A DNA stretch of 64,000 nucleotides from Escherichia coli (GCF_024502345.1 NZ_JALDNN010000001.1); one strand, 5' to 3'; shown: positions 4,338 through 38,456, numbered from the stretch's first letter. Numbers and translations: made by a program. The notes: generated from the sequence alone by a model not told the origin.

Positions 4338-4343
4338 TTGAAG

Positions 4344-4802: not shown

Positions 4803-4896
4803 ATCGGTTCTCCTTGAACAATGCCGGTGAATTGGATGACGCACCGAACAGAGCCGCCGGCTCACTCTGAATAGCGCCTATTACTTTTCGTTTCTA

Positions 4897-6231: not shown

Positions 6232-6240
6232 GTCGTGCCG

Positions 6241-10537: not shown

Positions 10538-10634
10538 GCTCATGCTCCTTGAGAGGACTGATTTGACGAGGCGCCGAAGGTCACGGCGCCTCGCCATTCA
10601 CTTGGTTTTTCTGTAGAGAACAAGCCGATCGGCG

Positions 10635-11204
10635 TCAGCCGTTGATCGGGATCGAGCGGCCCTGCTTGGGCGCACTGGCCTCGCGCTTTTCCATTGTGAT
10701 CGTGAGTACGCCGTTCTTGAAAGCGGCCTTGATCGTGTCCTGGTTGGCATCGGTCGGCAGGTTCAGAGCGCGCTGAAAGCTGCCGTAGGAGCGCTCCACC
10801 CGGTGGAAACCGCCGTCTTTGCTTTCCTGCTCCTGACGCTTTTCACCGCGAACCAGCAGCACGTCGTTGTCGAGCGTGATATGGATGTCTTTTTCCTCGA
10901 CGCCGGGAACCTCCAAAGAAATCTTGTACTGCTTGTCGGTCTCCTGGATGTCCAGCGCCGGCTTCAGCAGGCCCGGCCAGTCCGACGGCCAGCGTGGCAT
11001 GGCCAGCGCCGGAAAGCCGAAGCCTCGAAACGTGTCGTCGAAGAGGCGGTCGATCTCGCGGTGCAATTGCAGGATGGGACTGACGGGCCCACCCGCTACC
11101 GGCAGGTCATTGCGCTGCACCGGCAGCGAGGCAGTGCTCTGTTGTTCTTCCTGCTCCTTCTTGAACCAGTTCCAGGGAGCCAACTTCTTGAAATCAATGT
11201 CCAT
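10635..11204 (-). CDS. Small heat shock protein Hsp20 (sHsp20)
   Basis: Alpha-crystallin domain (DIQETDKQYKISLEVPGV...GVLTITMEK); GGAGG RBS before internal ATG (MDIDFKK). Confidence 0.85.
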   Translation of the reverse strand: MDIDFKKLAPWNWFKKEQEEQQSTASLPVQRNDLPVAGGPVSPILQLHREIDRLFDDTFRGFGFPALAMPRWPSDWPGLLKPALDIQETDKQYKISLEVPGVEEKDIHITLDNDVLLVRGEKRQEQESKDGGFHRVERSYGSFQRALNLPTDANQDTIKAAFKNGVLTITMEKREASAPKQGRSIPING

Positions 11205-11239
11205 GTCACACCTCCAGAACAAAAATTGAAGACTCTCGC

Positions 11240-11521
11240 TCACTCCGTTTGCCTGCGGCTATGGATAGCGCGCCCAGGCAACACGGGATGTTTCGCTGAC
11301 TTCGGCTGCTCATCTGTACGTATCACCTCCTTCTTTCTGCCTGCTTGGATCTGATCATTGATCCATCGATCGATTTCACTTTGACGAAACCGCCACGTCC
11401 CGCCGACCTTGAAGGCCGGAATCTCCCCGTGCGCGGCGAGCCGGTAGAGCGTCCGCTTGCCGACCTTTAAGTAGGTAGCCAACTCGTCGAGTGTGAAGAT
11501 CGCCTGCTGGCGCGCTGTCAT
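11240..11521 (-). CDS. Small HTH DNA-binding protein (AlpA/excisionase/MerR-like), first gene of the heat-resistance locus
   Basis: Motif LDELATYLKVGKRTLYRLAAHGEIPAFKVGGTWRF typical of HTH_17/excisionase-type regulators; 4-nt overlap with sHsp20 ORF. Confidence 0.6.
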   Translation of the reverse strand: MTARQQAIFTLDELATYLKVGKRTLYRLAAHGEIPAFKVGGTWRFRQSEIDRWINDQIQAGRKKEVIRTDEQPKSAKHPVLPGRAIHSRRQTE

Positions 11522-12028
11522 ACCACCCCCACAAGTTCCGTCGTCACGCGGCCTCGCCTGAGGAAGTTCTTGCAAGACTTTGCAAGATATTGCGCCTAAT
11601 ATGCCAAAAGTCAAGAGTCAACATCCAGCGATCTGCTGGCCGATTGATGTGACTCAAATCTTCAAGGACGGTATGCCAGGGCGGGCCGGTCCGGCGCAGG
11701 GGACGGTGGGTTGATCGGGACCTTGCGGGCGCCGCCCACGGCCGCAGATCAAACACCGATCCTCACGTTGTAACCGAGCGCCCGCAGCCCCTTGCTCGTG
11801 CGCATGTTCCTTGGCGGAAACTCGTCTGGGCGCGCCCAGCCGACGATTTCCCCGAGGCTGCTCAGGCCAATGTGCGGAATTGCCCAGTCGTCGCTGCGGA
11901 TCGCGTTCCAGAGTCGGGCCGAAAAACCTCCGTTGCCCCAGACAACGTAGTTCAACAGTATCCGTCCTGCCAACACACCTTCCCGACACCGCCGCCGAAG
12001 GCCATGGCCCATCAAGCGGATTTTCCAT

Positions 12029-12399
12029 GCCCCCTCAGCGCCGTACCTACAGCAAATCTTTCAAGGCCCAGGTCATTCAGGAGTGTTCTGAACCCGGTGC
12101 CTCCATCGCAAACATCGCCTTGGGCTACAGCCTCAATGCCAACCTCGTCCACAAATGGATTCGGCTGCATACCCAGAAAACCACGGCTATCCAGCCAGCG
12201 TTCATCCCGTTGCCTTCTCAAATGCTCGGCGCGGGATCGCATGCTCAAGTGCGCTGCTGCGATCATGAGTTTGATCCAGTCGGCCCGTAATAATGGGCAC
12301 GATCCGTATGCCTATCTCAAGGATGTGCTGACACGGTTGCCGACGCAGCGGGCGAGTGAGATTGCAGAGCTGCTGCCGCATAGGTGGCATCCGGCATAG
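12029..12399 (+). mobile_element. IS66-family remnant: OrfA-like HTH fragment fused to a TnpC C-terminal fragment (internally deleted)
   Basis: RRTYSKSFKAQVIQE...NANLVHKWIR transposase-HTH pattern; separate frame ends ...GHDPYAYLKDVLTRLPTQRASEIAELLPHRWHPA like the IS66 TnpC C-terminus; central transposase region absent. Confidence 0.6.
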
Positions 12400-12639
12400 T
12401 CGCGCAAGACGGTCTGCCCGCACGCTTACGTTCAACAGCTCAAGCACCGTCCGCCCTTCGCGGGATCGTTGCCGCCAGAGCCACACGCCGAACTTTTCCA
12501 CCTTGTCGTCGCCGGCCTGCGGTCAGTCAGGCAAGCCCAGGTGCTTGTTTTCCTGCTTGATCGCGTGGTCTCGGATCGCGTGCACCCGGGAAACGGCATC
12601 CACGAACTGCCACCATCTCTTAGCTTGGCGGGGTCAAGC

Positions 12640-14497
<1,858 letters not shown>

Positions 14498-14505
<8 letters not shown>

Positions 14506-16000
14506 TCCATCTTCCTATCAATCGAATGAACGCAGTGGTCAGTGGTGCCACCCTGCTTTTTTCCAATCCACAACGCTTTTCCAGCTCCCAGCGCCTAGAC
14601 GTTATGCCTGTCTGTACATCCTTCAGCATCGCTGCAGTCAGGCGACGGATCTGATACTCGCCGACGGACTCGGCATAGCGATCCAGGAAGGTGCAGCAAA
14701 GAGGCAATTGATCGAGACGGTGCTCGACTGATGCCCGATGGGGTAGCTGCTGCAGGAACCAGTTGCGACTCCTGCGCGGAAGGCCCAGGTCTTCTTCGCT
14801 ACCTCTACCAATCCGGATCAGCAGGCGCACCAACCTTATGTCACGCGCTCGCCAGTCGATGTGGCTGTTGTTGCCCTGTCGGCGCTGCCTGACCTGGTTC
14901 GCAACCATCAGCCAGTGTCGGTCATGACGATAGAGCCAGGCGTAACATGCCCCTGCTCCGTCTTGCCTGGCTGCCTTGGCTCCACCGTGATTAGCCAGTG
15001 CTTGCAGCCAAATGGCTCGGTACTGCTGCTTTTGCTCAAACTCAGCAGGGAGCAGCTGCACTGACCGCTCGGAGGCAAGGTCGACCTGGCGAGTCTTCGC
15101 CTCGCTGATCAGCTCGCCAGCATGCTGGCCAGGGCGCAGGCTGGTCCAGACGATCAGATGCTGCAGCGCACTGAATCCCTTGCGATGCTTCCTGAACATC
15201 GCCAACAGCCAAGGTGGAGGCTCTCCGGATGTCAGCAGACCGTTCGCAGCAAGCCAATCCCTTTGATGGGATGCCAGGATCTTCTCCCAGATGACTTCAG
15301 CCCTGACCTGCCGGCCTCGCCTGGCGCCGCACTCTGTAGCCAGGTACCGGTACAGGTTGGTCCAGCGTCCGTAGCCAGGCGATTGCACCTCTTCGAGCGC
15401 CAGCAGCTGCATAGCAGCCTTGGCGAGCCTGATAGCCTCTTCGCCCACGGGACTCACGCGAAGATCACGGGGCAGAAACAGTGGAGAGGCTGTATGAAAC
15501 TCGTGCCGCTGCGCTCGACGGAACGGGATAGGTGAGTTCAGGAGCTGACAGCCATGCTCGGGACAGGCATCTATCCCTTGAATCTGCCAGCTGCGCCGCC
15601 AGTAGGGTTCACCGTAGCGCGCAGCCATATCTTCAAAGCAGATCGGGCAGTAACGCAGCCAATCGGGCCACTTGACCAAGGCCGTCGAGGCCCCAGACAG
15701 ACCAATCGTCGGCCGGTCGGGAGCAAGCATGGCCTGAAAAAGATCGGTACGGCGCTCCGGCGGAATGAAAGGGGCATAGAGCGGGAACAGCGTGTGATTC
15801 AGGATCATGCCTTCCGCATCCAAGCCCGTGTTGTTCGCCAACGCAGTCAGGTGTGTGGGCAGATCGGTGATCGCGGCAACCTTGCTGTCACCGAAAAGCA
15901 TGTGCAGCAAGGTCTTGTGGCTGCCTATCCCCAGATGTACCCGGCACCGGGCAATACCGCTGTAAAGCAGTTCGTCCGGGTAGAGCCTGGGGAAGTACAT
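14498..16000 (-). CDS. tnsD: TnsD/TniQ-family target-site selection protein
   Basis: 500 aa; N-terminal TniQ-like region (YPDELLYSGIARC) and CPICFED...CPEHGC zinc-finger motif. Confidence 0.75.
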
Positions 16001-16001
16001 G

Positions 16002-17612
16002 TCAGCTCGCTCTCAGCAGAGGCCGTAGATCGAGGATCAAGCCAGCCTGCTTGAATCTGTCATAGGCCTCGCTTTCAGGCCCATCGGCATAACGTCGGCG
16101 CAGATCCTCCTCGGATAGGCACCCCCACTCCGTCCGCTTAACTCTGGAAATGCCGGGCCTCTTGGGAGCGTCCTGCGCGAGGTAGGCCGTGGCCTTGTGA
16201 ATCAGGGCCGCCAGCGGGATGTCCGGATTCTCCGCCAACAATTCATCGGCCATGGGAATGGCGATGTCCCTCGGGATTTCCATACCTTCGAGCAGGGCGG
16301 CCAACCGCTTTGCCTTGTCATCAGCCGGAGGGGCCGGTGGTTTAGGTTGGGGGACGCTATCCAGAGAGCGAGTCAGGGTCAGCAACCGTCCCTCGATCTC
16401 TGGCATCAGCAGGTCGTCATATTTGGCGATCAGCTCGGGCCTACCGCTCCGCAAGGCCGCCAGCATCGGATGGACCGGTTTGAACTCGTCCTCGAAAACC
16501 CTGCGCAGCAACAGCGGCTTAATGCACTCGACACCTGTCACTATCGCCCGGATCTGCGCCAGCGCGAACAGCTTGATGACGATGTCCATGACCCCTTGGG
16601 TGAGGTCGTACATCGTAGCCTCCAGTTCATCATCCAGCGGCGCCGCATTTCGCAGCCACTGATACTTCCAAAGCCGCTTCAACAGACGCTTCCAATGCTC
16701 GTCCCGAGGCAACCTATCCCAGCGGATGCTGCCCAACCCGGAGACCCGCCGAGCAGCCCGGAACGTGCGCTGGAAGAACTTGCTGGCCCGGTGGGTGCCG
16801 ACCTGAATGATCGGAACACCGATGGTGTTCACCAGCGACACGAAGAAATTGTGCATTTTTTCGGCACCACCGGAGCGTGCCTCGTTGAGGTTCTGAACCT
16901 CGTCGATGATCAGCACTCCGAGCGTGTGCAGATTGGCCAGCTGGCACATGGATGCCAGCAGACGTTTGGTACCCAGCTTCTTGCGTCCGTGGCTACGGCT
17001 GTAGTGGGTACCCAGGATCTTGTCTACTTCGTTGAAGAAGCTCAGGCACAGCTCATCCAAGTCACCGTCAATTGGGCAGTCGATCTTCAGGTAGACCAGT
17101 TGGGTGATGTCGTAATCAGGGTGATGGAGAGCTTGGGGGTACATGCCCAGAATCCGCTCCAGCGTGCGCGTCTTGCCGCAACCGGAGCAGCCGAACAGCG
17201 ACAGGCTGTTGGCCGTAGAGGAGACACTCTGGTACACCGCCGCATCCAGATCCTCCTCCTCGACACGGCGATAGCCATTCTGCAGGTGCGCATACCAGGC
17301 ACCGCTGGCCGGATTCCGACCGATGTACCCTTGACGGATCATCAGGCTGATCTTGCTCTCCAGCTCCAAGTGATGGCTCAGCGGCTGGAAGAAGCCGTGC
17401 AACAGGCGGGCAATCGCATGTGCCCTGAGCCGACCATCCAGAAGCGCCTCCTGCGGCTCGAAACCGGGAAGCTGCTGCAATAGATCGACCACCTCCTGCA
17501 GATCAGGAATCGGAGGCAATGCGCTGATGAGCGGATTGTCCTGATACTCGGGAAGCTGCTGCTCCTGGTAACGCGCCAGGGGAATGACTCCGCGCTGGAA
17601 TTCTTCAGTCAT
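16002..17612 (-). CDS. tnsC: TnsC AAA+ transposition regulator
   Basis: 536 aa; Walker A GCSGCGKT; Walker B-like IIDEVQN; placed between tnsB and tnsD. Confidence 0.8.
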   Translation of the reverse strand: MTEEFQRGVIPLARYQEQQLPEYQDNPLISALPPIPDLQEVVDLLQQLPGFEPQEALLDGRLRAHAIARLLHGFFQPLSHHLELESKISLMIRQGYIGRNPASGAWYAHLQNGYRRVEEEDLDAAVYQSVSSTANSLSLFGCSGCGKTRTLERILGMYPQALHHPDYDITQLVYLKIDCPIDGDLDELCLSFFNEVDKILGTHYSRSHGRKKLGTKRLLASMCQLANLHTLGVLIIDEVQNLNEARSGGAEKMHNFFVSLVNTIGVPIIQVGTHRASKFFQRTFRAARRVSGLGSIRWDRLPRDEHWKRLLKRLWKYQWLRNAAPLDDELEATMYDLTQGVMDIVIKLFALAQIRAIVTGVECIKPLLLRRVFEDEFKPVHPMLAALRSGRPELIAKYDDLLMPEIEGRLLTLTRSLDSVPQPKPPAPPADDKAKRLAALLEGMEIPRDIAIPMADELLAENPDIPLAALIHKATAYLAQDAPKRPGISRVKRTEWGCLSEEDLRRRYADGPESEAYDRFKQAGLILDLRPLLRAS

Positions 17613-19692
17613 CCTCTTCCTCCTTGAATATCAGGTCACTGAGATCTGGGAAGGCATAATCTTCCTGCTTCTCGCCCCGCAGTGGGATCACCTCGGCTGG
17701 CTTTTCCTGCTGTGCTTTATCCGGTTTGAATGCTGTTTTCTGGCGTTCCTGGCGCTTTTCCTGCTGCTTGTTCTCGCGGATCTGGGTTCCCAGATCCTTC
17801 GTGGTCATACCCGTTTTGAGCGGACTGGCATCCTCTGCCTGGGCAACGATGGACTCGATCTGCTTCAGAAGATTGCCTCTCTCTACCAAAGCTTCCGCCG
17901 CCGCGTTGGTATCGCTACGCCGTTCCTCTCTGGACAGCAGCCAGACATCCCAGAAGGTCATCCCCCTGAAGCGTCGACTGCGGTCGGCAAGATCGCAAAC
18001 CCAGTAGTCCTTGAGACTATTGGACGGCCGCAGGTAGATGTGGTCGGCGCTACGCGGATCGTATGCGACCGTTACCCCTGTCGGCCGGCGCCCCTGGCCT
18101 CGGTGAAACCAACCCTCCCTGATTGCTTCCTGGCAGGTGTAGAAGCAGCCGAACAGTCTGATTCCCAGCTCCGAAACCGTGGCCGACTCATGGGGCAAGA
18201 GATTTATCCGCACCAGCTCCTCGGGCGCAGTACGTAACCGGCCGGTCAAGTTGGCCAAGCCCCAGTTCCACAGCATGACCGGGATGGCTGGCAGATCGCC
18301 CGGCATACCAGAGGTTCTGTCGTATTTGCTCAAGGTATGAAAGTTGTTGTGGTAGAGGATGCCGGCAATGATGATCTGGGTGAACTCGGGCAAGGTCAGA
18401 CTGGCATCAAGTCTGTAGTCGTGGCCACCCCGCTTCCGGCTGGTGGTGTCCTCGACCACACCGCTGGCATAGGGCTTGAAACGCTCCTGCACCGTCCGGA
18501 AATAACGCTCGACGATCCCCTTGGCATCTCCTCGCCTGGCCGGTGCATTCTCGATGCGAACGCCGAAGGCTTGGGAAAATGCTTCCACCTTGGTGCCATT
18601 CAGTTCGCCCTTATCGGCCAGCACCACATCCGGCAAGCCTTTGACCGGCCAGTCGCTGGCATCGATCTCCACGCTATACTGGCGGCAATACTCAACCTTG
18701 TCGGCGACCGTGTTGGCCAATGCCACCATGGCACTGACCCAGGAAGGTCCCTCGAATCCGACGTACATACCAACGACCATGCGGCTGAACACGTCGATCA
18801 CCATGTAAACGACAGGCCTGCCGACGATAAGGCTGCGATCATGTTCTGAAACCAGATAGATATCGGCGATGGTGGCATCGATCTGGTAGCGGTATCCTGG
18901 CCCCAGTGCCTCGGTCGTCGATGTACTGCTGAGCGGTCGGAAGTCCTTGGCAAAATCCACTGCGGACACCCTGCATGGCAAGGTGTCGGTGAAGTGATAT
19001 TCGCGCCCATAGAAGTAACGGAACTGCCCCAATGTAGGCAGTTCGGAGGTCGGCAGCTCCGTCAGAACAGCACGGAGCAGATTCAGCCCGGCGGCGTAGG
19101 CATCAGGAATGGACGGATGTTTTTCCTTGAGCAAACGTTCCTCGATGACCCGGCGAAAAATGCGCTCGATGTCCGGCGTGACATTGCTCCCTTTCCCCTC
19201 CATCACCACTCTGGGCCTGCCCAGCTTGGCCTGGTTCGGCTTTCTGCGCTTGCCACGGGCGCCCGAGTTGACATAGTCCGGCAAGAGGGCATTCCTGCAC
19301 ATGCCTCGCTGCCAGTAGCGCCTCAGTAACCTATACACCGTCTGATTGGTGACACCATGGCGCTCCATGATGCCTCTGACAATGAGCCCTCTGGGGCGCC
19401 GCACGAAAAGCTGGGGGTTGTGCACAAAATCCGCCAGCATTCCCCAAGCTTCATCACGCTTCTGCTGATCAAGGGAACCTTCCTCAACCTCCCGTAGGAC
19501 TGTTTCCTCGAAGGGATCGGCAATGCTCTCCAGCTCCCGCTCCATGATCAGACGCTCCAGCTCTACAATCGATATCGGTTCGGGCAACGCCGTGTCCGAA
19601 TCGATATCGATCCAGATTGCCTGCTCGGTACCGGACCAAAGCAGGCGCTTTCGCAGTTCCCCCATCCGGAACACCTGATTAACGGGCAACAC
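17605..19692 (-). CDS. tnsB: TnsB DDE transposase (retroviral-integrase-like core)
   Basis: 695 aa; N-terminal HTH, central rve-like core (YQIDATIADIY...VIDVFSRM...), similar in size to Tn7 TnsB. Confidence 0.85.
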   Translation of the reverse strand: MLPVNQVFRMGELRKRLLWSGTEQAIWIDIDSDTALPEPISIVELERLIMERELESIADPFEETVLREVEEGSLDQQKRDEAWGMLADFVHNPQLFVRRPRGLIVRGIMERHGVTNQTVYRLLRRYWQRGMCRNALLPDYVNSGARGKRRKPNQAKLGRPRVVMEGKGSNVTPDIERIFRRVIEERLLKEKHPSIPDAYAAGLNLLRAVLTELPTSELPTLGQFRYFYGREYHFTDTLPCRVSAVDFAKDFRPLSSTSTTEALGPGYRYQIDATIADIYLVSEHDRSLIVGRPVVYMVIDVFSRMVVGMYVGFEGPSWVSAMVALANTVADKVEYCRQYSVEIDASDWPVKGLPDVVLADKGELNGTKVEAFSQAFGVRIENAPARRGDAKGIVERYFRTVQERFKPYASGVVEDTTSRKRGGHDYRLDASLTLPEFTQIIIAGILYHNNFHTLSKYDRTSGMPGDLPAIPVMLWNWGLANLTGRLRTAPEELVRINLLPHESATVSELGIRLFGCFYTCQEAIREGWFHRGQGRRPTGVTVAYDPRSADHIYLRPSNSLKDYWVCDLADRSRRFRGMTFWDVWLLSREERRSDTNAAAEALVERGNLLKQIESIVAQAEDASPLKTGMTTKDLGTQIRENKQQEKRQERQKTAFKPDKAQQEKPAEVIPLRGEKQEDYAFPDLSDLIFKEEEDD

Positions 19693-20506
19693 TGCTCAGC
19701 TCCTGATGCATTTGATGAGAGTTGGCAACCAGGTCTTTCGGCTTCAGCTCCCGGTAAGGAGTGTCAAGATCGAAAAGGAAACAGTGCCGGGCCAGCAACT
19801 GGCGTAGCCAATAGAGCGCCTGACCGGCCTCCAGCTGGCCGGAGGTATCCAGTCCTTGGGCAATAGCGGTCAGCTTCCGGTCTGGGTGACGCTGAAACTC
19901 GAGCAGAAACAGCTGCTGGTAATGGGCGAGATCGTCCTGAGCGATGTCGCCTTCAGCATGGGCAGGATAGAGCCATTGGATATTGGCAAATGCCACCTTG
20001 GATACCTCGCGCTCCGTAACGATGACCCAGGGAATACCTTTTTCCTGCCAGTAGCGCCTTTCAAGCTCAAGCCTCTCGATAACTTCAGGCTTCTGCAGGT
20101 CGGTACTGTACTTGGCCTGAATCGCGATGCTCGGGCGCTGAGGATCTTCGAAATCCACCAGAAAGTCGCTGGTCAGTACCTGCGGGGTACCCTTGTAACA
20201 ACCGTGGGGCAGGCCAAGCTCCTCGGCGATGCGCACCGTATCTTCGACCCGCATCGGAAACTGTTCACGGATATCGGTGACATGGGGAGACCGATCCAAG
20301 GTCAGGAAGATGGCCAGTTCAAGATCGGATAGAAGATGGTGTAAACGCCGGGTCTTGCTGCCAGGCAGGCGGTGGGAGCGACCCAGCGAGGACACGTCCC
20401 TTGTGTAGATGAACGGCTTGTAGTCTGATCCCTGGCCTTGACCACGCCCGTCCTTGAGCCTTCTATCGATCTGGGCCTGGGTCAGCCCCTTGAATGTTCC
20501 AGACAT
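19679..20506 (-). CDS. tnsA: TnsA endonuclease
   Basis: 275 aa; blocks shared with Tn7 TnsA as I recall it (QIxRRxKxGRGQG, GRSHR, HHLLSDLELAxFL, DIREQFP, LELERRYWQ). Confidence 0.9.
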   Translation of the reverse strand: MSGTFKGLTQAQIDRRLKDGRGQGQGSDYKPFIYTRDVSSLGRSHRLPGSKTRRLHHLLSDLELAIFLTLDRSPHVTDIREQFPMRVEDTVRIAEELGLPHGCYKGTPQVLTSDFLVDFEDPQRPSIAIQAKYSTDLQKPEVIERLELERRYWQEKGIPWVIVTEREVSKVAFANIQWLYPAHAEGDIAQDDLAHYQQLFLLEFQRHPDRKLTAIAQGLDTSGQLEAGQALYWLRQLLARHCFLFDLDTPYRELKPKDLVANSHQMHQELSSVAR

Positions 20507-20565
20507 GAGAAAGCCTGCCCCCGCTGTGTCGATGACCTCAACATAGCGGATGCAGGCTCAGAATG

Positions 20566-20626
20566 AAACTTTATTTATACGGATGATACTTTATTTATAC
20601 GGATGAACCTTTATTTGCATCCCACA
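20566..20626. repeat. Tn7-like right-end terminal repeats (putative TnsB binding sites) ending in terminal 5'-TGTGGG on the complementary strand
   Basis: Three tandem about 20-bp repeats: ACTTTATTTATACGGATGA (x2) then CCTTTATTTGCATCCCACA; about 120 bp upstream of tnsA start. Confidence 0.75.
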
Positions 20627-20703
20627 CATTTTACTTAAGGCATAAGCGGTAGAGTTGAGTGATAACCCTTCCATAATTTCATTTTCTAACACACTAATTT
20701 AAT

Positions 20704-21069
20704 TTAGTGTGAATTTCCACTTTTAGTCATTATCGCTATCGCTTCATCGATAGTCGGTATTGTAAAGAGAGAATTCTCTCTACAATCCTTGCGAATAACC
20801 TTCCTGTTTTTTTGAACAGAAATATTTTCGCACCAGGCTAATGTCCCGGTGAAATGCTTTTCTTCCATCCTCATATCTAGAAAAGCAAGTCGATCATTAA
20901 GGGATTGCATATCTTCAGTTACAGTAGAGGGACCTGATTCTAACAGTTCCAGACGGCTTTCCACATCAGCAACCTTGCCTTTAACCTGTGAGACGTCTTC
21001 TGCTAACTTTTCATGTCTGTGGATAGTATCAGCAAGTGCTCGTGAGTTTTGGGCGAATATCTCAGCCAT
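20704..21069 (-). CDS. Hypothetical coiled-coil protein (low-GC module)
   Basis: 121-aa ORF, heptad-like charged/hydrophobic pattern; no recognisable motif. Confidence 0.35.
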   Translation of the reverse strand: MAEIFAQNSRALADTIHRHEKLAEDVSQVKGKVADVESRLELLESGPSTVTEDMQSLNDRLAFLDMRMEEKHFTGTLAWCENISVQKNRKVIRKDCRENSLFTIPTIDEAIAIMTKSGNSH

Positions 21070-21216
21070 TTGCGCTAAGGCAGATCCTTTCGCTTCTGGT
21101 GGAGGTGGGTATATATACCTAATGCTTAGTCAACGACAGTATGACCTCATGGAATAACCATTTTTGAAAGTGCTCACCAGCTGCGCTTCGGTCGCTCGAC
21201 ATGACTCAATACAAAC

Positions 21217-21420
21217 CTAGTTGGAGCTATAACTTTCGCCGTAGGAATTAATGACCATTATTTGGCCAGCATCAACAGGCTGGCCATCTAAAGTAACAAG
21301 TCGTTTAGTTGCACGCTCTGGAAAGATAATATCCTTTGACTGCCTATCTTCTTCAATGTCCTTTAGTACCTTAGCCAAGGAGGTTTTCAATGTTCCATGG
21401 GGCGCATACAAAGAGCACAC
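21217..21420 (-). CDS. Hypothetical small protein (possibly a gene fragment)
   Basis: 67-aa ORF only; low-GC context. Confidence 0.2.
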   Translation of the reverse strand: MCSLYAPHGTLKTSLAKVLKDIEEDRQSKDIIFPERATKRLVTLDGQPVDAGQIMVINSYGESYSSN

Positions 21421-21562
21421 GCCGTCAATGCTATTAATTCTGGTAAAGTCTAACTACTCCACCAGTTTATTGATGCTGTAACAGTTCTCCAGATCCAGTC
21501 CAAGTTTCATTTCGACTTCTTTTTCAAATCGTTCATTTCAAAAAACTGTGAATTAACACAGC

Positions 21563-23216
21563 TCACGCATACCTGCTTGAAAACTCGTCCATCGAATTAG
21601 ATACCGTAAAATTCACCTCATCACCCAGTGCTTCAAAATGTGCATAACCACATTTTATTTTGGCATTTTCCTCCGGACGTCGTTCCACCGAGAAAAGCGT
21701 GCTTTTGGTTTCGACAACGAAATAGAGCTTTTCTTTTCCGTCCTTTTCGATCAGCACCGCCCAGTCGGGGTTGTAACCGCCTAATGGGGTATCGATTTTG
21801 AACCAACTAGGGAGTTTGGCGTAAAGTTTGATATCCTCGTTTCGCTCGAAGGCCGAGGCGAATTCCAATTCGATATCAGAGTCGTAAACCACGTGGTCGA
21901 AGACGGACTTCGTCATACCAGCGGTAGTTGGCGACCTTGTCGATAAAAAACAGGCTCAGCACCTTAATGCCCTGTGGGCGCAGGCGCATTTCTTTATCGA
22001 GATGCTCTTCAATGGTTTTGCGGATCTGCAGGCGTTTAAATTCATCCGGATCAACTTCTCCCAAGGCCTGACCCAGTTTCAGAATATCGGGCTTACTGGT
22101 AAAGCTGATGTATTCATTGCCCTGTTCGCAGTAGATGTCATCAATAATGTAGCCGTCATATACATCGCGGCCACCGCTGTACCTGGCATCCAGCAAATCC
22201 GCTCCGCTGGTCACCGTGACTTCCTTGCGCTTAATGCTGCCATTCTTCAGGCGAGCATCAATTTCGATTTTGGCACTGATCGGGCTTTTTTTATTGTTCA
22301 CACTGACCAGCTTGATAAAGGCCTTATTGTGGCCGTCCTTAACCTCAATGCCTGCCACTTCAATCTGCTTAACCAGTTTTTGCTCGTAGGCATCAACTGA
22401 ATCAAGCTTGTAGAGCATATGGTGCTTTTCCACATGGGTAGCTGAATAACGCAGTGTACACATGGGATTAAGCGAGGCGATGGCCTCTTTACTCTTATCT
22501 GTGGTGTCAACACTCTGCGGCTCATCGACAATCACAATTGGGTTGGTTTGCTGGATAAATTCGATCGGCTTGGCACCGGTCATCCGGTCGTGTGCCCGGT
22601 GAATGATGTTGGCTTTGTTCTCTTGCTCCGGGTCGCTAAAGCTTTTCCGGAAGGCATCGATATTGATGACCATGATCTGAATGTCAGGGCTGGTCGCAAA
22701 GTTACGCACATCCGACAGCTTACTGGAATCGTAGGTGAAATAGTCGAAGGCAACGTTTTCGTACAGCTCTTTAAAATGAGTCGCCGTAATTTCCAGTGAC
22801 TTCTGCACTCCTTCTTTAATGGCGATGGACGGCACCACGATAATAAACTTGGTAAAGCCATAGAGCCGGTTCATTTCGAAAACTGTACGCAGGTAAACAT
22901 AGGTTTTACCCGTTCCGGTTTCCATTTCCACGGTTAAGTGAATGCCGTATTTCGAGTCAAATGACTCTGACGGCGCGAGGCCATTTTTCAGCTGTATTTT
23001 GCGGATATTGGCATGGATGTCTTCATCCAGCAGGCGTAGGCGGTTACCAATACCCAGGGTATCTTCCTGAATACCATGAAACAGCGAGCCTTCTTCCCAG
23101 GAATGCAGCGGTGCTACCGTAAAGTTGGTCTGGCAGATTTCCTGGCCGGCGAATACGCCCGTTACTGACTCAATCGCATCACGCTGATAGCCAAGGTGAT
23201 AGCTGTAACTCTTCAA
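21563..23216 (-). pseudogene. res: Type III restriction Res-like SF2 helicase-nuclease, disrupted (frameshift between helicase N-terminal part and C-terminal PD-(D/E)xK nuclease part; helicase domain 2 apparently missing)
   Basis: ORF 21876..23216 has YQRDAI, METGTGKT (Walker A), IVDEPQ (Walker B), SAT motif; ORF 21563..21916 in another frame has GYNPDW...FVVETK nuclease motif; frames overlap 21879-21955 around an A6/T6 tract at 21945-21950. Confidence 0.65.
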
Positions 23217-23700
23217 TGACCCACTTTGCTTGATCCGCTCTGTTTATGCGCTTGTCCGCCAGGCAGATAGCCAGTTGTTCTTTGTCGTGTTGTTTTTCGC
23301 GTACGTTTGAATCCGAATCGCCAGTGCCCTCTGTGCCTTTGTTTTCAGCGTGCACAAAGAAAATTACTAATGGGTAAGGTATCGCCCTGTTGATCAGCTG
23401 ACCAATTCGTTCTGCGCTTTTGGTATTGCTTAATTCCACGTGCAGAAAGGCCAGCTCACCATAGTCGCGCAGGTCGTCACTAAAAGGCGCGATATTGATG
23501 GTGCTGGGCTTTAGGGTGTAGAGCCAACGGATTTTATCAACATCGTCCTTCAGAGCCTTTTTGTCTTTAGCGTCCAGGTCGGCGTGCTCCTGAAACATCT
23601 TTTTGAACAGGGGCTTATTGAGCACACAGCTATTGGGCACGTTCAAGCCTTCCAGAAAGGCTTCGAATTGTGGCAAGCCTAACCTCATATCAGACATCAC
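23179..23700 (-). CDS. Hypothetical protein (possibly DUF4391-like), 38-bp overlap with res-like gene
   Basis: 173-aa ORF co-oriented and overlapping res start; DUF4391 assignment is from memory only. Confidence 0.35.
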   Translation of the reverse strand: MMSDMRLGLPQFEAFLEGLNVPNSCVLNKPLFKKMFQEHADLDAKDKKALKDDVDKIRWLYTLKPSTINIAPFSDDLRDYGELAFLHVELSNTKSAERIGQLINRAIPYPLVIFFVHAENKGTEGTGDSDSNVREKQHDKEQLAICLADKRINRADQAKWVIEELQLSPWLSA

Positions 23701-24403
23701 GCTCTCCTTGACCTTCTGTTCCCTGAGTAACGGCTGTCAATATCAGGTAGGACACCACCATAAAGTCTTCAATGCCCTGACTGGAGGTGGCGGTAAGTAC
23801 AGTACCGCCTTTGGCAAACAGGCTTTCAATGCCTTTTTCTTCGCTCTTCCCGGCAATGCTATCTACAGCGACAGCTAATAGGTGCTGAAAGTGGCTCATA
23901 TCACACCCGTGGCGTGTCATGCGGTTAACTTCGGTGATGGCGGGTTGATCGGGCACTTTGTGCTTAAAGGCTTCACGCTTGAGCAGATCGAGTATCTTTT
24001 TACTTTGGGTGAAGTTCAGCTCAACTACAGTGCTGCCTTCGGCATCAGCGGTCACGTAGATCAGGAAGTAAGGTGCCAGCGGGTAATTATCATCTACCTG
24101 AACCGCTTCTTTACCGCTGCGGATATTCTTCAGGCAGAAGATGACGCCGGGTTTGATGCCATCGGCGACCATATCTTCGTCAATGCTGACGGCGGCATAC
24201 AGGCCTAGCGGTGTTTGCTCCAGCGTTGCGAGACGGGCCTTATCGTTCATGTAGCCTGACAGATCCATGCGGAAGTCATTGAGGGTAAGGTCGGTAATGG
24301 ATACCGGATGGGGCGTGGAGGATATGGTAGCAACCATGATGCGCTGTCTGCCGGACCGCGCCACCAGCCCAGTAGCGACACAGTTGCACGGGAGGCTCTG
24401 CAC
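23690..24403 (-). pseudogene. Hypothetical ORF, probably the 3' portion of a 5'-truncated gene
   Basis: GTG-initiated 237-aa ORF; same frame stays open a further 72 codons upstream (to about 24619) without any ATG/GTG/TTG; upstream part is GC-rich unlike the body. Confidence 0.4.
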
Positions 24404-24835
24404 GGAGCCGGTAAAGTCGCAGGCCCGTGACGGCTTCGGTGAGGCGGTGGGGCGGGTGTTCGATACGGCAGAGTCATCGTCATTCCTGCCTGCGCCGCTG
24501 AAGACGGTGATACGTACCGTGCGTGATGCGGTGGTGTCTGTAGCCCGCGCGGTCTGGGACTGGATCTTCTTCTGAATGAGTAAAAGGTCATCAGCGTTGT
24601 AGTGGATGGCTCTGTTTATTCACAGCCTGGTGGATGATTATTTTAAAGCAGACACAACCTGTCCTGACCAGCAAAAGATATCACCAGTCATAAGCGCGTC
24701 ACCACTGCCGACGTTGCATCCACGCAGTCTTCTCGCGCCAGGCGTTTCGCTACGTATCACGGACATAACCTGTCAGTCTCATCCTTTACAGTAATACCTT
24801 CTTAATTAATCAATTACCAAACACGGAGATAATAC

Positions 24836-25159
24836 ATGTCTCAGACTGAGCGTCGTTATGACCGCCTGTCTGTCCGGCTTTCTCTGATTATCAGCCGTCT
24901 GCTCGCGGGTGAAACGCTGAATATGCGCAAACTGGCCGCTGAGTTTGGCGTCTCGGAGCGTACCCGCCAGCAGTCAGCGGCTGTGGCGTCACAATACACC
25001 AACGTTGCTACAGAGGATGACCAGAACACACATTTTCGCCTGGTGGTCCGGGATACCGACGGCAGGATGCACTGGCGGGCCAGGAACTTTGAGCCGGAGG
25101 CGGGTTACTGGCTGAACCGCTATCTCACCAGCGATGGCATTCGCAGAGCCACAACGTAA
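24836..25159 (+). pseudogene. YfjR-like DeoR/WYL-type HTH regulator, N-terminal fragment (likely disrupted)
   Basis: N-terminus [33 protein letters not shown] is a DeoR-type HTH; remainder lacks the expected continuation; 107 aa versus over 200 expected. Confidence 0.45.
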
Positions 25160-25278
25160 TACATACTACCGTTACCTTCAGCATACCACCCGCAACGATG
25201 TTATAAACAGAGCTAGGCCACACCTCCTTCGGGAAGTGTGGCCTTTCGTATTTTTATCGAGAGAATAAGGAGTTATCC

Positions 25279-26097
25279 ATGCGACTCGCCAGCCGCTTTG
25301 GCCGTATCAATCAGATCCGCCGCGACCGCCCCTTAACCCATGAAGAATTAATGCAGGTTGTTCCCAGCGTCTTCGGGGAAGGTAAGCACGTGTCCCGTTC
25401 AGACCATTACAGCTACATACCGACCATTACCCTGCTGGAGAACCTGCAGCGTGAAGGATTCCAGCCATTCTTTGCCTGCCAGACCCGCGTCAGGGACCAG
25501 AGCCGCCGTGAGCATACGAAACATATGCTGCGCCTGCGTCGCTCCGGGCAGATAACCGGTCAGCAGGTGCCGGAAATTATCCTGCTCAATTCGCATGACG
25601 GTTCGTCCAGTTACCAGATGTTGCCGGGGTATTTCCGTGCCATCTGTACCAACGGTCTCGTCTACGGGCAGTCATTTGGCGAGGTGCGAGTGCCACACCG
25701 GGGAAATGTCGTGGAGAAAGTGATTGAAGGCGCTTACGAAGTCCTCGGTGTGTTCGACCGGGTGGAAGAGAAGCGTGATGCGATGCAGTCGCTTTTACTC
25801 CCGCCACCGGCACAACAGGCTTTTGCCAGAGCCGCGCTGACGTACCGCTTCGGGGAAGAGCACCAGCCGGTGACGGAAGCGCAGATACTGACACCCCGCC
25901 GCTATAAAGACCGTCAGGATGACCTGTGGTCAGTTTTTAATCGGTGCCAGGAGAACCTGCTCAAAGGGGGGCTGCCAGGACGTACTGCCAAAGGCAAACG
26001 CAGCCATACCCGCGCGGTGAAAGGCATCGACGGCGACGTTAAGCTCAACCGGGCACTCTGGGTGATGGCGGAAAAACTGCAGCAGGCGCTGAGCTGA
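25279..26097 (+). CDS. DUF932-family protein (YfjQ/YafZ-like)
   Basis: 272 aa; size and position upstream of the antirestriction-radC-TA module as in E. coli CP4-type prophage remnants. Confidence 0.7.
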   Translation: MRLASRFGRINQIRRDRPLTHEELMQVVPSVFGEGKHVSRSDHYSYIPTITLLENLQREGFQPFFACQTRVRDQSRREHTKHMLRLRRSGQITGQQVPEIILLNSHDGSSSYQMLPGYFRAICTNGLVYGQSFGEVRVPHRGNVVEKVIEGAYEVLGVFDRVEEKRDAMQSLLLPPPAQQAFARAALTYRFGEEHQPVTEAQILTPRRYKDRQDDLWSVFNRCQENLLKGGLPGRTAKGKRSHTRAVKGIDGDVKLNRALWVMAEKLQQALS

Positions 26098-26364
26098 TGC
26101 CACCGCTGCCTGATAACGCCCACCCGGTCGCCATTTATCCTGCCCCCTGGAGAACAACCCCGGCAGCCGCTCCATCTCCGATGACGACCTGTGCGCCTAT
26201 GCTCACACCTTCTTTATCGTCCCGGTGAACTCAGTTTCTGCCGGTTAAGTCTCGCTGACGGCCACTGGCCCTCACACTGTGATGAAGACGGCTATGCGCA
26301 GTCATGTCCGTCACTCCGATTGAACCAGTATCCCCAACACAATGAATGAAAGAGGAAAAACAAC

Positions 26365-26835
26365 ATGACCGATAACACTCTGCCACTGTTCACACCCGCA
26401 GCAGATGCTCTTGCTGCGGCTCAGCATCAGATTATCGCTATACCGGTAACCGATGAGAACCGCATCAGCTTCTGGCCGCAGCACTTTGGCAGCATTCCGC
26501 AGTGGATAATCCTTGAGCCGACCATCTTCGCGTGGATGGACCGCTTCAGCACGGACTACAACGGCGGCATCTGGAATTTTTACACGCTGAGCAACGGCGG
26601 TGCGTTTATGGCCCCGGAAGTGGAGAACGATGAACTCTGGTCGCTGTTTAACACGATGAACGGCAACGGCGGTGACATGAGTGCTGAAGCTGCAGGGATT
26701 GCGGTCTGTCTGATGGCTTACAGCCACCATGCCTGCCGTACCGAATGCGACGCCATGACGGAGCACTACTACCGCCTGCGGGACTACGCGCTCAACCACG
26801 CGGAATGCAACGCCATCATGCACATCATCGACTGA
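26365..26835 (+). CDS. Antirestriction protein (YfjX/YafX family)
   Basis: 156 aa; conserved position immediately upstream of the radC-like gene. Confidence 0.75.
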
Positions 26836-26846
26836 GGTCAGCCGCT

Positions 26847-27326
26847 ATGGAGCAACAGTTACCGTTGTTTGCCCGTGAATTAGCCCCTGCCGACCTGCAG
26901 ACAGTCAGGAAAGCCTTATCTCTGTTGAAGTGCCAGCTACGTGAAACCGGGGCGTCATTTACTTCCAGCCATGCCGTCCGCGACTGGCTGCGCCTGCAGC
27001 TCGCGTCACTGGAGCGGGAAGAGTTTACCGCGCTCTTTCTCGATAACCAGCATCGCCTGATAGCCCACGAAACGCTATTTACCGGCACCATCAACCATAC
27101 GCAGGTCCATCCCCGCGAAGTGGTGAAGGCCGGTCTGAAGCATAACTGCGCCGCTGTCATTGTCGCCCATAGCCATCCCTCCGGGGAGGCTGAACCCAGC
27201 AAGGCAGACCGTCAGGTCACTACGCGTATTCAGCAGGCGCTGGACCTGGTTGATATCCGCCTGCTGGACCACCTGGTGGTCGGCGGCATGGAGATCACCT
27301 CGTTTGCAGATCGTGGCTGGCTGTAG
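26847..27326 (+). CDS. RadC-like JAB-domain protein (YfjY/YeeS/YkfG family)
   Basis: JAMM-type motif [14 protein letters not shown]; start placed at MEQQLPLF (track ORF 26745 overlaps upstream gene). Confidence 0.85.
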
Positions 27327-27346
27327 CACAACAGGAGAATAACCCA

Positions 27347-27568
27347 ATGAAAATTATCAGTAAACGTCAGGCTATGGCGATATACCGCCAGCATCCGCAG
27401 TCCCGGTTGTTTCCCTTCTGCACGGGTAAATACAAATGGTCTGGCAGCATCTGCCACTACGCCGGGCAGGAGGTTCAGGATATCAGCGGTGTGCTCGCGG
27501 TCTTCGCTGAACGCCGTCAGAACCGCAACGGCCACTATGTCGTATTACGCAGCGTCACGCTGAATTAA
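27347..27568 (+). CDS. DUF987 protein (YpjJ/YeeT/YkfH family)
   Basis: 73-aa ORF between radC-like and antitoxin genes, as in yeeS-yeeT-yeeU-yeeV. Confidence 0.7.
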   Translation: MKIISKRQAMAIYRQHPQSRLFPFCTGKYKWSGSICHYAGQEVQDISGVLAVFAERRQNRNGHYVVLRSVTLN

Positions 27569-27591
27569 CACACGTTTAAGGAAGGTTAAAA

Positions 27592-27951
27592 TTGTCGAAT
27601 AAAACACCGATAGTAAACCACGATGTCACTGAACCCTGGTGGGGGCTTAAACGCAGTATCACGCCCTGTTTTGGCGTACGGCTGGTGCAGGCGGGCAACT
27701 GTCTGCATTATCTCGCTGACCGGGCCAGCATCACCGGACAGTTCAGCGACGCGGATTTACGGCATCTCGACCAGGCATTTCCACTGCTGCTCAAACAGCT
27801 TGGACTGATGCTCACCAGCGGTGAACTCACTCCCCGCCATCAGCACTGTGTCACGCTCTATGCAAAAGGGCTGACCTGCGAGGCCGACTCCCTCGGCTCG
27901 CATGGTTACGTATACCTGGCGATTTATCCGACACCAGCGGCAACCGCGTAA
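27592..27951 (+). CDS. Type IV antitoxin, CbeA/YeeU/YfjZ family
   Basis: 119 aa, directly upstream of cbtA-like toxin; non-ATG (TTG) start per track. Confidence 0.8.
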
Positions 27952-28001
27952 AGCTTCTTACTACTTACCCTCGTTTTACCCATCAACAAAGAGATCCCAC
28001 T

Positions 28002-28379
28002 ATGCAAACCCAACCACTATCCTCAACGCAGGAGGCTACATCACGCCCGTCACCGGTGGAGATCTGGCAACAGCTTCTGAGCCACCTGTTGGATCGTCAC
28101 TACGGTCTGACGCTTAACGACACGCCGTTTGGCAACGACGGTGTGATTCAGGAGCATATCGACGCCGGTATATCACTGTGCGACGCCGTGAATTTTATTG
28201 TGGAGAAGTACGATCTGGTGCGCATCGATCGTCACGGTTTCAGTACAGAAACACAGTTGCCGCGTCTCACCAGTATCGATATTCTCCGCGCCCGCAAAGC
28301 CACCGGGTTGATGACTCGCAACGATTACAGAACGGTGACCGACATCACCACCGGTAAATACCGTGGGGGGCATCGATGA
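28002..28379 (+). CDS. Type IV toxin, CbtA/YeeV/YpjF family (cytoskeleton inhibitor)
   Basis: 125 aa; position and size typical of CbtA-family toxins. Confidence 0.8.
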
Positions 28380-28867
28380 AGTTATCCCTGACGGTAGAAG
28401 CCGACGCCATCAACGTTCTGGCCCTGAATGCGGGCCGAATCGCTGTGGATATTGACGGCATTGAACTGGCTGCGCTGATCGATGTGGTCTGTGATAACGG
28501 TTATTCCCTTCGCGTTGCTGACTCCCCCGGAAAGCTGGTCGTTGAAGATCCGCTTCCACCCGTCGCCCGCGTTAATGGCATCCAGTGCAGTACCGCGCAT
28601 ATTACGGAGGAAGACAACGCTCTGCTGTTTACTCTTTCACACCAGAATGAAGACTTTGGTGAGTCGGAATGGATTAGTTACACCGGGTCGGGTTATCTGC
28701 TCCACCTGGGTGCCTGGTCATTTCCGGTCTTACGCCTCAAACGTCTCGGTCTGTCGAAAGCCTGCCGTCGGTTAGTAGTGACGCTTATCCGTCGCTACGC
28801 CGTTGGCATTGTTCATCTGGATGCCTTTGGCGCAGTGCTGCCGGGCTTTGACATTTTCGACTGGTAA
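28376..28867 (+). CDS. YeeW-like hypothetical protein
   Basis: 163-aa ORF overlapping toxin stop by 4 nt, same position as yeeW downstream of yeeV. Confidence 0.55.
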
Positions 28868-28898
28868 ATCTTCTCACCAATAAGCACAGGATATTCTC

Positions 28899-29102
28899 AT
28901 GGAGAAATTAACCACCGAAGTGGCTCTCAACGTTCTGATTGACTGGCTGCAGGACAACATCGATTGTGGGAACATGATTATTTTCGACAACGACGAAGAC
29001 AACACCGATTCAGCAGTGCTGTTGCCCTGGATTGAACGTGCGCGTCAGGACGTTCGCGATCTCCGTCATCTTCAACTTCTGCGACAGACCAGTACAAATT
29101 AA
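28899..29102 (+). CDS. Small hypothetical protein
   Basis: 67-aa ORF with plausible spacing; no motif. Confidence 0.3.
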   Translation: MEKLTTEVALNVLIDWLQDNIDCGNMIIFDNDEDNTDSAVLLPWIERARQDVRDLRHLQLLRQTSTN

Positions 29103-29158
29103 CCACCGAACAGTACTCATCACTTACTCATAATCGCCAGCCCTCACCGGCTGGCGCT

Positions 29159-30034
29159 TTGCTTTATATAAGGAACGAAATAATGTCAGAGCTTACTCTC
29201 ACCAAACCCGAAGTATTAACCGGCCACACCGACGTGATTTGCTCCACCAGCATTGAGCGTATTGTCACCGGACGTAATGCCGCACTGGCGCAGATTGAAG
29301 CGCTGATACAACAACTTGACACTATTTCAACGCTGACCCGCAGTATCGGGGGAAAAACCGCGTTGGACTGGGCTATGAAGCAGGATTTCCGTTGTGGCTG
29401 CTGGCTGATGGAGAAACCAGAAGCAGCGCTGAAGGCCATTACCCGTAATCTCGATCGCAGCATATGGCGAGACCTGATGAAGAAGTCGGGCATGCTTTCG
29501 CTCATGGATGCTCAGGCTCGTGAGCAGTGGTACAACAGCCTGGAAAAGGACGATATTCCCGCTGTCAGTGAAGCCAATATCCTCAGTACGTTTGAGCAGT
29601 TGCACCAGAGCAAAGGCGAGGTGTTTGAGCGTGGGGCGATCAACGTGTTTAAAGGGCTGAGCTGGGATTTTAAGAGCAATAGCCCATGTAAGTTCGGGAA
29701 AAAGATCATCGTTACGGGACTGGTCAAATGTGATCGGTGGGGATTTGGGCTTAACTGGGGCTGGCAACGTGATCGGCTTGCAGACCTTGAACGCATGCTG
29801 ATGCTTCTTGATGGCAAACCGGTTCCCGACAACCGCGCTGACGTTACCCGTCGTCTCAGCGATCATATCCATGCTAATCGGCACAGCAATCGTTACGAGG
29901 ACGAGATGTTTGCGATCAAGTACTTTCAGAAGGGGACAGCGCATATCATCTTCAAACGACCAGAGCTGGTTGATAAGCTGAACGACATCATCGCCCGACA
30001 CTATCCGGGAGCACTGCCAGCGAGAAGAGAGTGA
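29159..30034 (+). CDS. Hypothetical island protein (possibly DUF4942-like), tRNA-proximal
   Basis: 291-aa ORF; last island gene before aspV; family assignment from memory, unverified. Confidence 0.4.
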   Translation: MLYIRNEIMSELTLTKPEVLTGHTDVICSTSIERIVTGRNAALAQIEALIQQLDTISTLTRSIGGKTALDWAMKQDFRCGCWLMEKPEAALKAITRNLDRSIWRDLMKKSGMLSLMDAQAREQWYNSLEKDDIPAVSEANILSTFEQLHQSKGEVFERGAINVFKGLSWDFKSNSPCKFGKKIIVTGLVKCDRWGFGLNWGWQRDRLADLERMLMLLDGKPVPDNRADVTRRLSDHIHANRHSNRYEDEMFAIKYFQKGTAHIIFKRPELVDKLNDIIARHYPGALPARRE

Positions 30035-30114
30035 GTTGTCCGATGCTATCTCAGGTAAGCCAGCGCAAGCCGGACGGTAATGGCATACTGGATGGCATAC
30101 CGAAAAAAACAGAT

Positions 30115-30148
30115 ATAAAAAAGGCCATGCTAATCAATAGCATGGCCT
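30115..30148 (-). terminator. Rho-independent terminator downstream of aspV
   Basis: Perfect 11-bp stem AGGCCATGCTA / TAGCATGGCCT with 5-nt loop followed by T-run on the minus strand. Confidence 0.8.
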
Positions 30149-30155
30149 AGAATAG

Positions 30156-30232
30156 TGGCGGAACGGACGGGACTCGAACCCGCGACCCCCTGCGTGACAG
30201 GCAGGTATTCTAACCGACTGAACTACCGCTCC
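30156..30232 (-). tRNA. aspV: tRNA-Asp (GUC)
   Basis: Exact reverse complement of my recalled E. coli tRNA-Asp sequence incl. CCA; adjacent to dnaQ as in K-12. Confidence 0.95.
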
Positions 30233-38379: not shown

Positions 38380-38456
38380 TGGCGGAACGGACGGGACTCG
38401 AACCCGCGACCCCCTGCGTGACAGGCAGGTATTCTAACCGACTGAACTACCGCTCC
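38380..38456 (-). tRNA. aspU: tRNA-Asp (GUC), distal tRNA of rrnH operon
   Basis: Identical to aspV copy; follows 5S rRNA. Confidence 0.95.

Follow-up and report, generated by a model that had tools for sequence, protein, structure and literature searches.

The tRNA-Asp gene aspV of Escherichia coli is bordered, in a 64,000-nucleotide stretch of NZ_JALDNN010000001.1 (assembly GCF_024502345.1; hereafter the window, a chromosomal sequence in the reverse of the K-12 orientation), by a module of genes that resembles parts of the K-12 prophage remnants CP4-6 and CP4-57. We consider it highly probable that this module, at 24302-30169, is the attL-side arm of an aspV island of the CP4 family, about 50-60 kb long, whose integrase and second attachment site, attR, lie at the far end, beyond position 1 of the window.

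The Island Joins aspV at a 20-bp Core

Two tRNA-Asp genes were identified in the window using ARAGORN and Rfam, the latter reporting tRNA and rRNA genes only. One of them, at 38380-38456, is aspU, the second tRNA-Asp copy behind the rrnH operon. Between the two copies lie dnaQ, rnhA, yafS, gloB, mltD, yafD, yafC and dkgB (RefSeq annotation of near-identical genomes), and this gene order identifies the copy starting at 30156 as aspV. In the alignment with K-12 aspV, identity covers the tRNA and 6 nt past the CCA end (CTATTC) and stops at window position 30150, indicating that foreign DNA starts at the 3' side of the tRNA. The gene itself is complete, with the insertion at its 3' end and the tRNA reconstituted, as expected of tRNA islands of the CP4 type. 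The last 14 nt of aspV and the 6 nt downstream form the proposed attL core, CGTCCGTTCCGCCACTATTC, of which the window contains one exact copy; neither this core nor the 3' end of the tRNA was found a second time in the 64 kb.

A preliminary description of this DNA had placed the island at aspV and regarded both the tRNA gene and its terminator as intact. The tRNA calls and the break in K-12 homology at 30150 support the anchoring, and the tRNA is complete and identical to that of K-12. The terminator is another matter, as the hairpin at 30122-30148 has no sequence relationship with the terminator of aspV in K-12 and is therefore supplied by the island, so that the ancestral terminator cannot be called intact. 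The hairpin is conserved in the islands of strains ATCC 8739, GPEC1185 and ABWA45, and by its sequence it would be a replacement terminator brought by the island, as such elements usually do.

Sister Islands Carry an Integrase, with the Partner Repeat in VREC0761

A tblastn search of the window, with three diverse tyrosine recombinases as queries, yielded no match below E = 0.006. In this sequence, aspV is only 30 kb from the left edge of the window and that edge falls inside the cargo of a transposon, therefore the far end of the island is out of view. The same island, 98.9-100% identical and including the nested transposon, is present in three complete genomes, namely VREC0761, ABWA45 and C 236-04A, and its far end was read in detail for VREC0761. 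There, the island (99.0-99.8% identical to the window) runs for ~57 kb from aspV and ends with an AlpA-like helix-turn-helix (HTH) gene, YfjI and YfjJ/Gp2-type genes, and a P4-type tyrosine integrase of 402 aa, in which the domains Arm-DNA-bind_3, Phage_int_M and Phage_integrase are recognised. Past the 5' end of the integrase gene, at a distance of about 177 bp, CGTCCGTTCCGCCACTATTC recurs in the same orientation as in aspV and is followed by ACTCATGAAAATGAG..., the sequence which in K-12 follows aspV and represents the flank of the empty site. Read as attachment sites, attL consists of the tRNA side, the core and the island, attR of the island, the core and the empty-site flank, and K-12 has the unoccupied attB. 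In ABWA45, an identical integrase segment is located ~60 kb from aspV. Probing the sister locus with the last 20 nt of aspV, allowing up to 3 mismatches, gave no match because the repeat is offset from the tRNA end, with 14 nt inside the gene and 6 nt downstream; it surfaced once the DNA upstream of the integrase was matched to the aspV flanks of other genomes.

The preliminary description had recorded the absence of an integrase and of any direct repeat of the 3' end of the tRNA, and had proposed to look upstream for a 15-20-bp repeat of the aspV end and a tyrosine integrase. Both absences hold within the window, and both features are present ~57 kb from aspV in VREC0761; for the island as a whole, the absence of an integrase probably does not hold, as the far end lies outside the window. 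Judged from the sister genomes, the integrase is very likely still present in this genome.

Two tandem copies of GTATGCCAT are positioned 50-70 bp inside the island from attL, and the window has no further exact copy. In VREC0761 the same pair, with spacing and orientation unchanged, lies in the interval from attR to the start of the integrase gene, and it is invariant across four island variants with differing neighbouring bases. As the integrase has an arm-DNA-binding domain, the pairs are plausible arm-type sites, to which this domain probably binds.

The Arm Has the Layout of CP4-6

Left of aspV, ten open reading frames (ORFs) on the + strand all point toward the tRNA. We ran Pfam on two linker-joined concatenates of the arm proteins, and this confirmed the CP4-type content given in the preliminary description, i.e., DUF932, antirestriction, RadC, DUF987, type IV toxin-antitoxin (TA) and YeeW-like genes; NCBIfam named RadC alone among the ten proteins. 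Seven of the proteins are 60-81% identical to YkfF, YafZ, YafX, YkfG, YkfH, YafW and YkfI of CP4-6 and are encoded in the same order, an order of CP4 genes which also recurs in CP4-57.

CP4-6 of K-12, integrated at thrW, is laid out in the same way: its complete tRNA gene is followed by genes for toxin, antitoxin, DUF987, RadC, antirestriction, DUF905, DUF932 and GTPase proteins, which face the tRNA throughout (thrW, ykfI, yafW, ykfH, ykfG, yafX ... intF), and a 48-nt direct repeat of the 3' part of thrW lies just beyond intF. CP4-6 excises at ~1-27 per 100,000 cells and reconstitutes its tRNA (PMC3105296). It differs from the aspV island in its target (thrW, not aspV), in the length of its repeat (48 nt versus 20 bp), in its cargo, and in having no DUF5983, DUF957 or DUF4942 gene in the interval from the toxin gene to the tRNA; its integrase IntF (466 aa) is of another type and matches the aspV-island integrase of 402 aa at E = 0.004 only. 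The likeness to CP4 remnants which had been proposed for a "proximal arm" is thus right as to content, with the refinement that the tRNA-side module is the arm farthest from the integrase, as in CP4-6.

CP4-57 of K-12, integrated at ssrA, shares the repertoire and the order (int, alpA, yfjI, yfjJ ... GTPase, DUF932, WYL regulator, YfjS ... lfgA (antirestriction), lfgB (RadC-like), DUF987, antitoxin, toxin) in the opposite orientation, i.e., ssrA is bordered by the integrase gene, with the TA arm at the distal end. This reversal, together with a median of 3 places per E. coli genome at which the module occurs (nearly every genome matches part of it), might suggest that paralogous CP4-type arms underwent homologous recombination or inversion, which would have brought the arm to aspV without site-specific integration there. 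We regard this as very improbable. The junction lies at the precise 20-bp core, and the partner repeat followed by the empty-site flank is the signature of an attL/attR pair; the junction is also identical in variants differing by ~10% elsewhere, and CP4-6 shows the same layout with a direct repeat.

aspV is among the tRNA genes most frequently targeted in E. coli (PMC7545054). Other islands share this hot spot and differ in content: PAI-CFT073-aspV carries Pic, TosA and Fbp (PMC7545054), and strain 13C1065T has type VI secretion system genes downstream of aspV, unlike the island in the window. Literature searches for aspV jointly with the locus of heat resistance, or for aspV with CP4-6, returned nothing relevant.

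The Arm Is Accessory and Occurs with Different Cargos

Among 5426 complete E. coli genomes, 287 (~5%) cover a 481-bp query across the junction between the DUF4942 gene and aspV, and the remaining genomes leave the window sequence at 30150 or 30156. The arm is therefore accessory and always joined at one position, and is not part of a conserved core at aspV, the outcome which the preliminary description had named as contrary to its proposal. Its composition is also atypical (54.6% GC compared with ~52% in the core), with 56-73% GC at third codon positions. In ATCC 8739 the same arm is found at aspV with a sil/pco region replacing the cargos seen here, and in GPEC1185 a junction variant 90% identical to that of the window accompanies yet other cargo. 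Sequence comparison thus presents the arm as a conserved scaffold, with a variable region that begins just upstream of the GTPase gene. The island is already widespread, with copies annotated in hundreds of RefSeq genomes.

These variants bear on whether the island is instead an immobile remnant, which has lost integrase and attR and whose arm is a fixed fossil at aspV. The window has neither an integrase nor a repeat, and this copy has suffered four deletions more than its sisters (see below). In ATCC 8739, the stretch from aspV to yafV contains the arm and lacks an integrase, and the integrase-attR segment was found in 41 genomes compared with 287 for the arm junction, about a sevenfold difference; decayed versions devoid of an integrase are therefore common. 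In VREC0761, an IS1 element sits ~250 bp beyond attR (locus 8856-9159) and the flank is deleted to yafV, with yafT to yafF gone, a further erosion of the distal island boundary.

All of this weighs against an island with a functional far end in this genome, as do two further points: integrase, attR and excisionase lie outside the window, so that their presence here is extrapolated from two sister genomes, and we infer the link between the GTATGCCAT pairs and integrase binding from sequence. However, VREC0761 and ABWA45, which share the same nested insertion and are 99.8-100% identical across the DNA they have in common, have each retained the integrase, VREC0761 was seen to have the 20-bp repeat as well, and attL, terminator and putative arm sites are intact in the window. 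An immobile remnant is therefore in our view unlikely, and we retain the interpretation of the module as the attL-side arm of an island with its integrase at the other end.

Genes of the Arm

Coordinates of the features are collected in Table 1. Gene functions are suggested by family names and homologues.

Table 1. Features of the aspV island and its nested transposon in the window
Feature	Position	Strand	Basis or remark
aspV, tRNA-Asp(GTC), complete	30156-30232	-	ARAGORN; Rfam RF00005, 67.7 bits; identical to K-12 aspV
Putative attL core CGTCCGTTCCGCCACTATTC, 20 bp (last 14 nt of aspV and 6 nt downstream)	30150-30169	-	K-12 empty-site homology ends at 30150
Predicted intrinsic terminator for aspV, island-borne	30122-30148	-	hairpin of 11 pairs, then TTTTTT
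Tandem GTATGCCAT, two copies, putative integrase arm-type sites	30080-30100	-	12-bp spacing
DUF4942 protein, 283 aa, last arm gene	29183-30034	+	Pfam PF13708, 8.2e-68
DUF957-type small protein, 67 aa	28899-29102	+	RefSeq name of near-identical copies (ABWA45) only
DUF5983 (YeeW-like) protein	28376-28867	+	Pfam DUF5983_N, 2.5e-28; DUF5983, 1.8e-15
CbtA-family type IV toxin, 125 aa	28002-28379	+	Pfam PF06755, 9.1e-49; 60% identical to K-12 YkfI
CbeA/YeeU-family antitoxin, 119 aa	27592-27951	+	Pfam PF06154, 1.2e-48; 64% identical to K-12 YafW
DUF987 protein	27347-27568	+	Pfam PF06174, 3.2e-32; 71% identical to YkfH
RadC-like JAB-domain protein	26847-27326	+	Pfam PF04002, 6e-43; TIGR00608 above cut-off; 60% identical to YkfG
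Antirestriction protein, KlcA/ArdB type	26365-26835	+	Pfam PF03230, 6.7e-37; 71% identical to YafX
DUF932 protein (YafZ/YfjQ-like)	25279-26097	+	Pfam PF06067, 4e-48; 81% identical to YafZ
Chimeric ORF, WYL/YfjR-like HTH::DUF905, 107 aa	24836-25159	+	in-frame deletion fusion
YfjP/YkfA-like GTPase gene, C-terminal fragment	24302-24575	+	aligns to ABWA45 locus 19803-20076, inside annotated GTPase gene
Wreck of helicase/DUF4391/methyltransferase/type III endonuclease system	21563-24304	-	
CATTT, copy of 5-bp target duplication beside Tn7-like right end	20627-20631	.	
Two tandem 20-bp repeats, ATGAAACTTTATTTATACGG and ATGATACTTTATTTATACGG	20563-20602		just inside Tn7-like right end
Tn7-like transposon, right part: tnsA, tnsB, tnsC, tnsD, tnsE and right end	12883-20626	-	ORFs; RefSeq names in 99.8% identical VREC0761 locus; PADLOC
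Transposon cargo: locus of heat resistance, or tLST (clpK, small heat-shock proteins, yfdX, hdeD, trx-GI, others)	1-12882	-	cut by window edge

The CbeA and CbtA genes are adjacent on one strand, antitoxin first, and both are full length, as in type IV TA systems. The K-12 paralogues of CbtA act on FtsZ and MreB, and in systems of this kind the antitoxin counteracts the toxin. The antirestriction protein also matches a PHROG family of that name (4.8e-53), and the DUF4942 protein shows weak PHROG similarity to a DNA methyltransferase family. The ORF at 28899-29102, for which Pfam gave no match, has an exact 15-nt direct repeat, AAATTAACCACCGAA, at its start and stop (28905-28919 and 29096-29110). 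A RadC-like paralogue in CP4-57, LfgB, has been reported as a protease that cleaves the antitoxin MqsA (PMC10846083).

By analogy with relatives, the best reading of the arm is that of an establishment-plus-maintenance module, in which anti-restriction and early functions would be followed by addiction or defence. We also considered whether the arm is a captured or shared leading region of the plasmid type. At least 5000 plasmids encode a homologue of the DUF932 protein (63-66% identity), and 88% of these plasmids are predicted to be conjugative. The leading regions of IncF plasmids contain both DUF905 and DUF932 homologues (DUF932 ~63% identical) near ssb, psiB, hok and traM, as in NZ_CP010209.1 (locus 2776-8822), where the order is ssb, DUF905, parB-like, psiB, hok, ssb, DUF932, SLT, traM. 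In such a scheme, CP4-type islands would be mobilised as single-stranded DNA by conjugative plasmids, with the DUF905, DUF932, antirestriction and RadC-like proteins produced early in the recipient to weaken its restriction and other defences, and CbtA/CbeA subsequently locking the island in. The arm, unlike an IncF leading region, has no ssb, psiB or relaxase gene, and an F-type nic motif, the sign of an origin of transfer, was sought and not found in the island. The basis of this proposal is the sharing of genes, and we consider it rather doubtful; the resemblance to IncF is a functional lead and not a sign of membership. The shared genes point to a gene pool common to CP4-type island arms and conjugative leading regions, and we keep to the establishment-plus-maintenance reading.

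A Tn7-like Transposon with a Heat-Resistance Locus Is Nested in the Island

The five tns ORFs (12883-20506) are uninterrupted, with tnsA, tnsB, tnsC, tnsD and tnsE encoding 275, 695, 536, 500 and 540 aa, respectively, and PADLOC gave TnsB and TniQ matches in this region. Of the two ends of the element the window contains the right end, which terminates at 20626 with the sequence …GCATCCCACA and is preceded by two tandem 20-bp repeats that look like TnsB-binding sites. A repeat search over 20.4-30.4 kb recovered these end repeats and otherwise short matches, which are probably due to chance. The VREC0761 copy of the element is bounded by terminal inverted repeats (TGTGGGATGCAAATAAAG...), shows a 5-bp duplication (AAATG) at both ends and has CP4-type backbone genes on both sides. 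Matches in many unrelated chromosomes and plasmids likewise end at window position 20626. The mapped ends, the target duplication and the flanking CP4-type genes together indicate a true transposition into the island. The element is Tn7-like in having tnsA, tnsB and tnsC with target selectors in the window and inverted repeats with the 5-bp duplication in VREC0761.

Just 4 kb separates the tnsABCDE genes from the arm, and the element turns its tnsA-proximal end toward aspV, an arrangement that would fit a transposon which targets the region downstream of a tRNA gene and carries the arm as cargo. There is next to no probability of this, as the end of the element, with terminal repeats of its own, maps to 20626, both ends are bordered by a 5-bp duplication in VREC0761, the element stops at the same base in many unrelated replicons, and ATCC 8739 has the arm without the tLST-carrying element. 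The mapped ends and the target duplication rule out the arm as cargo of the Tn7-like element.

The transposon cargo is 99.8% identical to annotated loci in VREC0761 and ABWA45 and has a GC content of 61%. The tLST can be bordered by Tn7 elements (PMC8290217), and the element in the window shares with Tn7-like tLST transposons the tnsABCDE set, TGT-type ends with repeated TnsB-type sites, the 5-bp duplication and the clpK/small heat-shock protein/yfdX/trx cargo; here, however, it is a nested passenger of the aspV island and not the arm itself. tnsA is split in VREC0761 and ABWA45, and ABWA45 also lacks tnsC, while all five tns ORFs are whole in the window, so that here the heat-resistance transposon may have remained capable of transposition. 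An FtsH-like gene at 4897-6231 is an ORF of 444 aa in the window and is annotated as incomplete, with its C-terminus missing, in the 99.8% identical VREC0761.

The composition of the window shifts accordingly, from 59.9% GC at 1-20626 to 46.8% at 20627-24304 and 54.6% in the arm. The nested composite structure and the serial acquisitions which the preliminary description had proposed are supported by these values, by the end of the Tn7-like element at 20626 and by the 5-bp duplication in VREC0761; what it had called a low-GC restriction-like module consists of gene fragments.

Four Deletions Distinguish This Copy of the Island

ABWA45 and VREC0761 are annotated with an intact helicase/DUF4391/methyltransferase/endonuclease system in the corresponding position. 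In the window, two fragments of the type III endonuclease, the N-terminal part of the DUF4391 protein and the C-terminal part of the helicase remain; the methyltransferase gene is gone, and only the tail of the GTPase gene is left next to the low-GC block. The ORF at 21876-23216 covers positions 6-420 of the 989-position type III restriction endonuclease model. With Mod deleted and Res reduced to N- and C-terminal fragments, this is not an intact type III restriction-modification system, and the block is, by its sequence, not a working restriction module.

The losses relative to both sister islands amount to four collinear deletions of 1376, 2375, 4479 and 2266 bp. Their junctions, at 21908-21911, 23188-23189, 24302-24304 and 24961-24965, show microhomologies of 4, 2, 3 and 5 bp (CTTC, TA, TAC and TACCC, respectively) and all fall within 3 kb of retained sequence. 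Among the matches listed, no complete genome spans the deletion junctions in one aligned piece. The pattern could reflect successive decay or one complex template-switching event.

The deletion of 2266 bp created the first ORF of the arm: 24302-24965 corresponds to the ABWA45 locus at 19803-20466, and the sequence from 24961 onward to that from 22728 onward. The first 43 codons of a WYL/YfjR-like regulator have thereby been joined in frame to the C-terminal part of a DUF905 gene, so that Pfam detects DUF905 at residues 43-104 only (4.6e-29), with a faint HTH match at residues 14-43. The ORF is therefore not a native gene. The chimera keeps the start codon of the WYL regulator, and presumably its upstream region too, directly upstream of the genes from DUF932 to the toxin, and without the regulator the arm might be expressed differently.

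Discussion

Taken together, the comparisons suggest the following course of events. A P4-type tyrosine integrase would insert the island into the 3' end of aspV via the 20-bp core, and the island would re-supply the 3' end of the tRNA and a terminator. The TA/antirestriction arm would then come to lie directly after the complete tRNA, with integrase, AlpA-like excisionase/regulator gene and attR at the opposite end. The DUF905, DUF932 and antirestriction genes, which are similar to those of plasmid leading regions, probably aid establishment after transfer, and CbtA/CbeA probably serves to stabilise the island or to add phage defence. In later events, the Tn7-like transposon with its heat-resistance locus entered the island backbone, and the four deletions wrecked the restriction/helicase system and removed the genes for the WYL regulator and a downstream hypothetical protein, the YfjS/YafY lipoprotein and IrmA.

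The island is an ordinary accessory element of known family, layout and hot spot, and leaves the current understanding of genomic islands unchallenged. For annotation, the value of these results is that the region can be described as the attL arm of an aspV island with the CP4-6 layout and not as an orphan module devoid of an integrase. The att core, the candidate arm sites and the exact nesting point of the Tn7-like element make excision of the island, and co-mobilisation of the heat- and chlorine-tolerance locus it carries, testable in strains of food-safety and wastewater interest.

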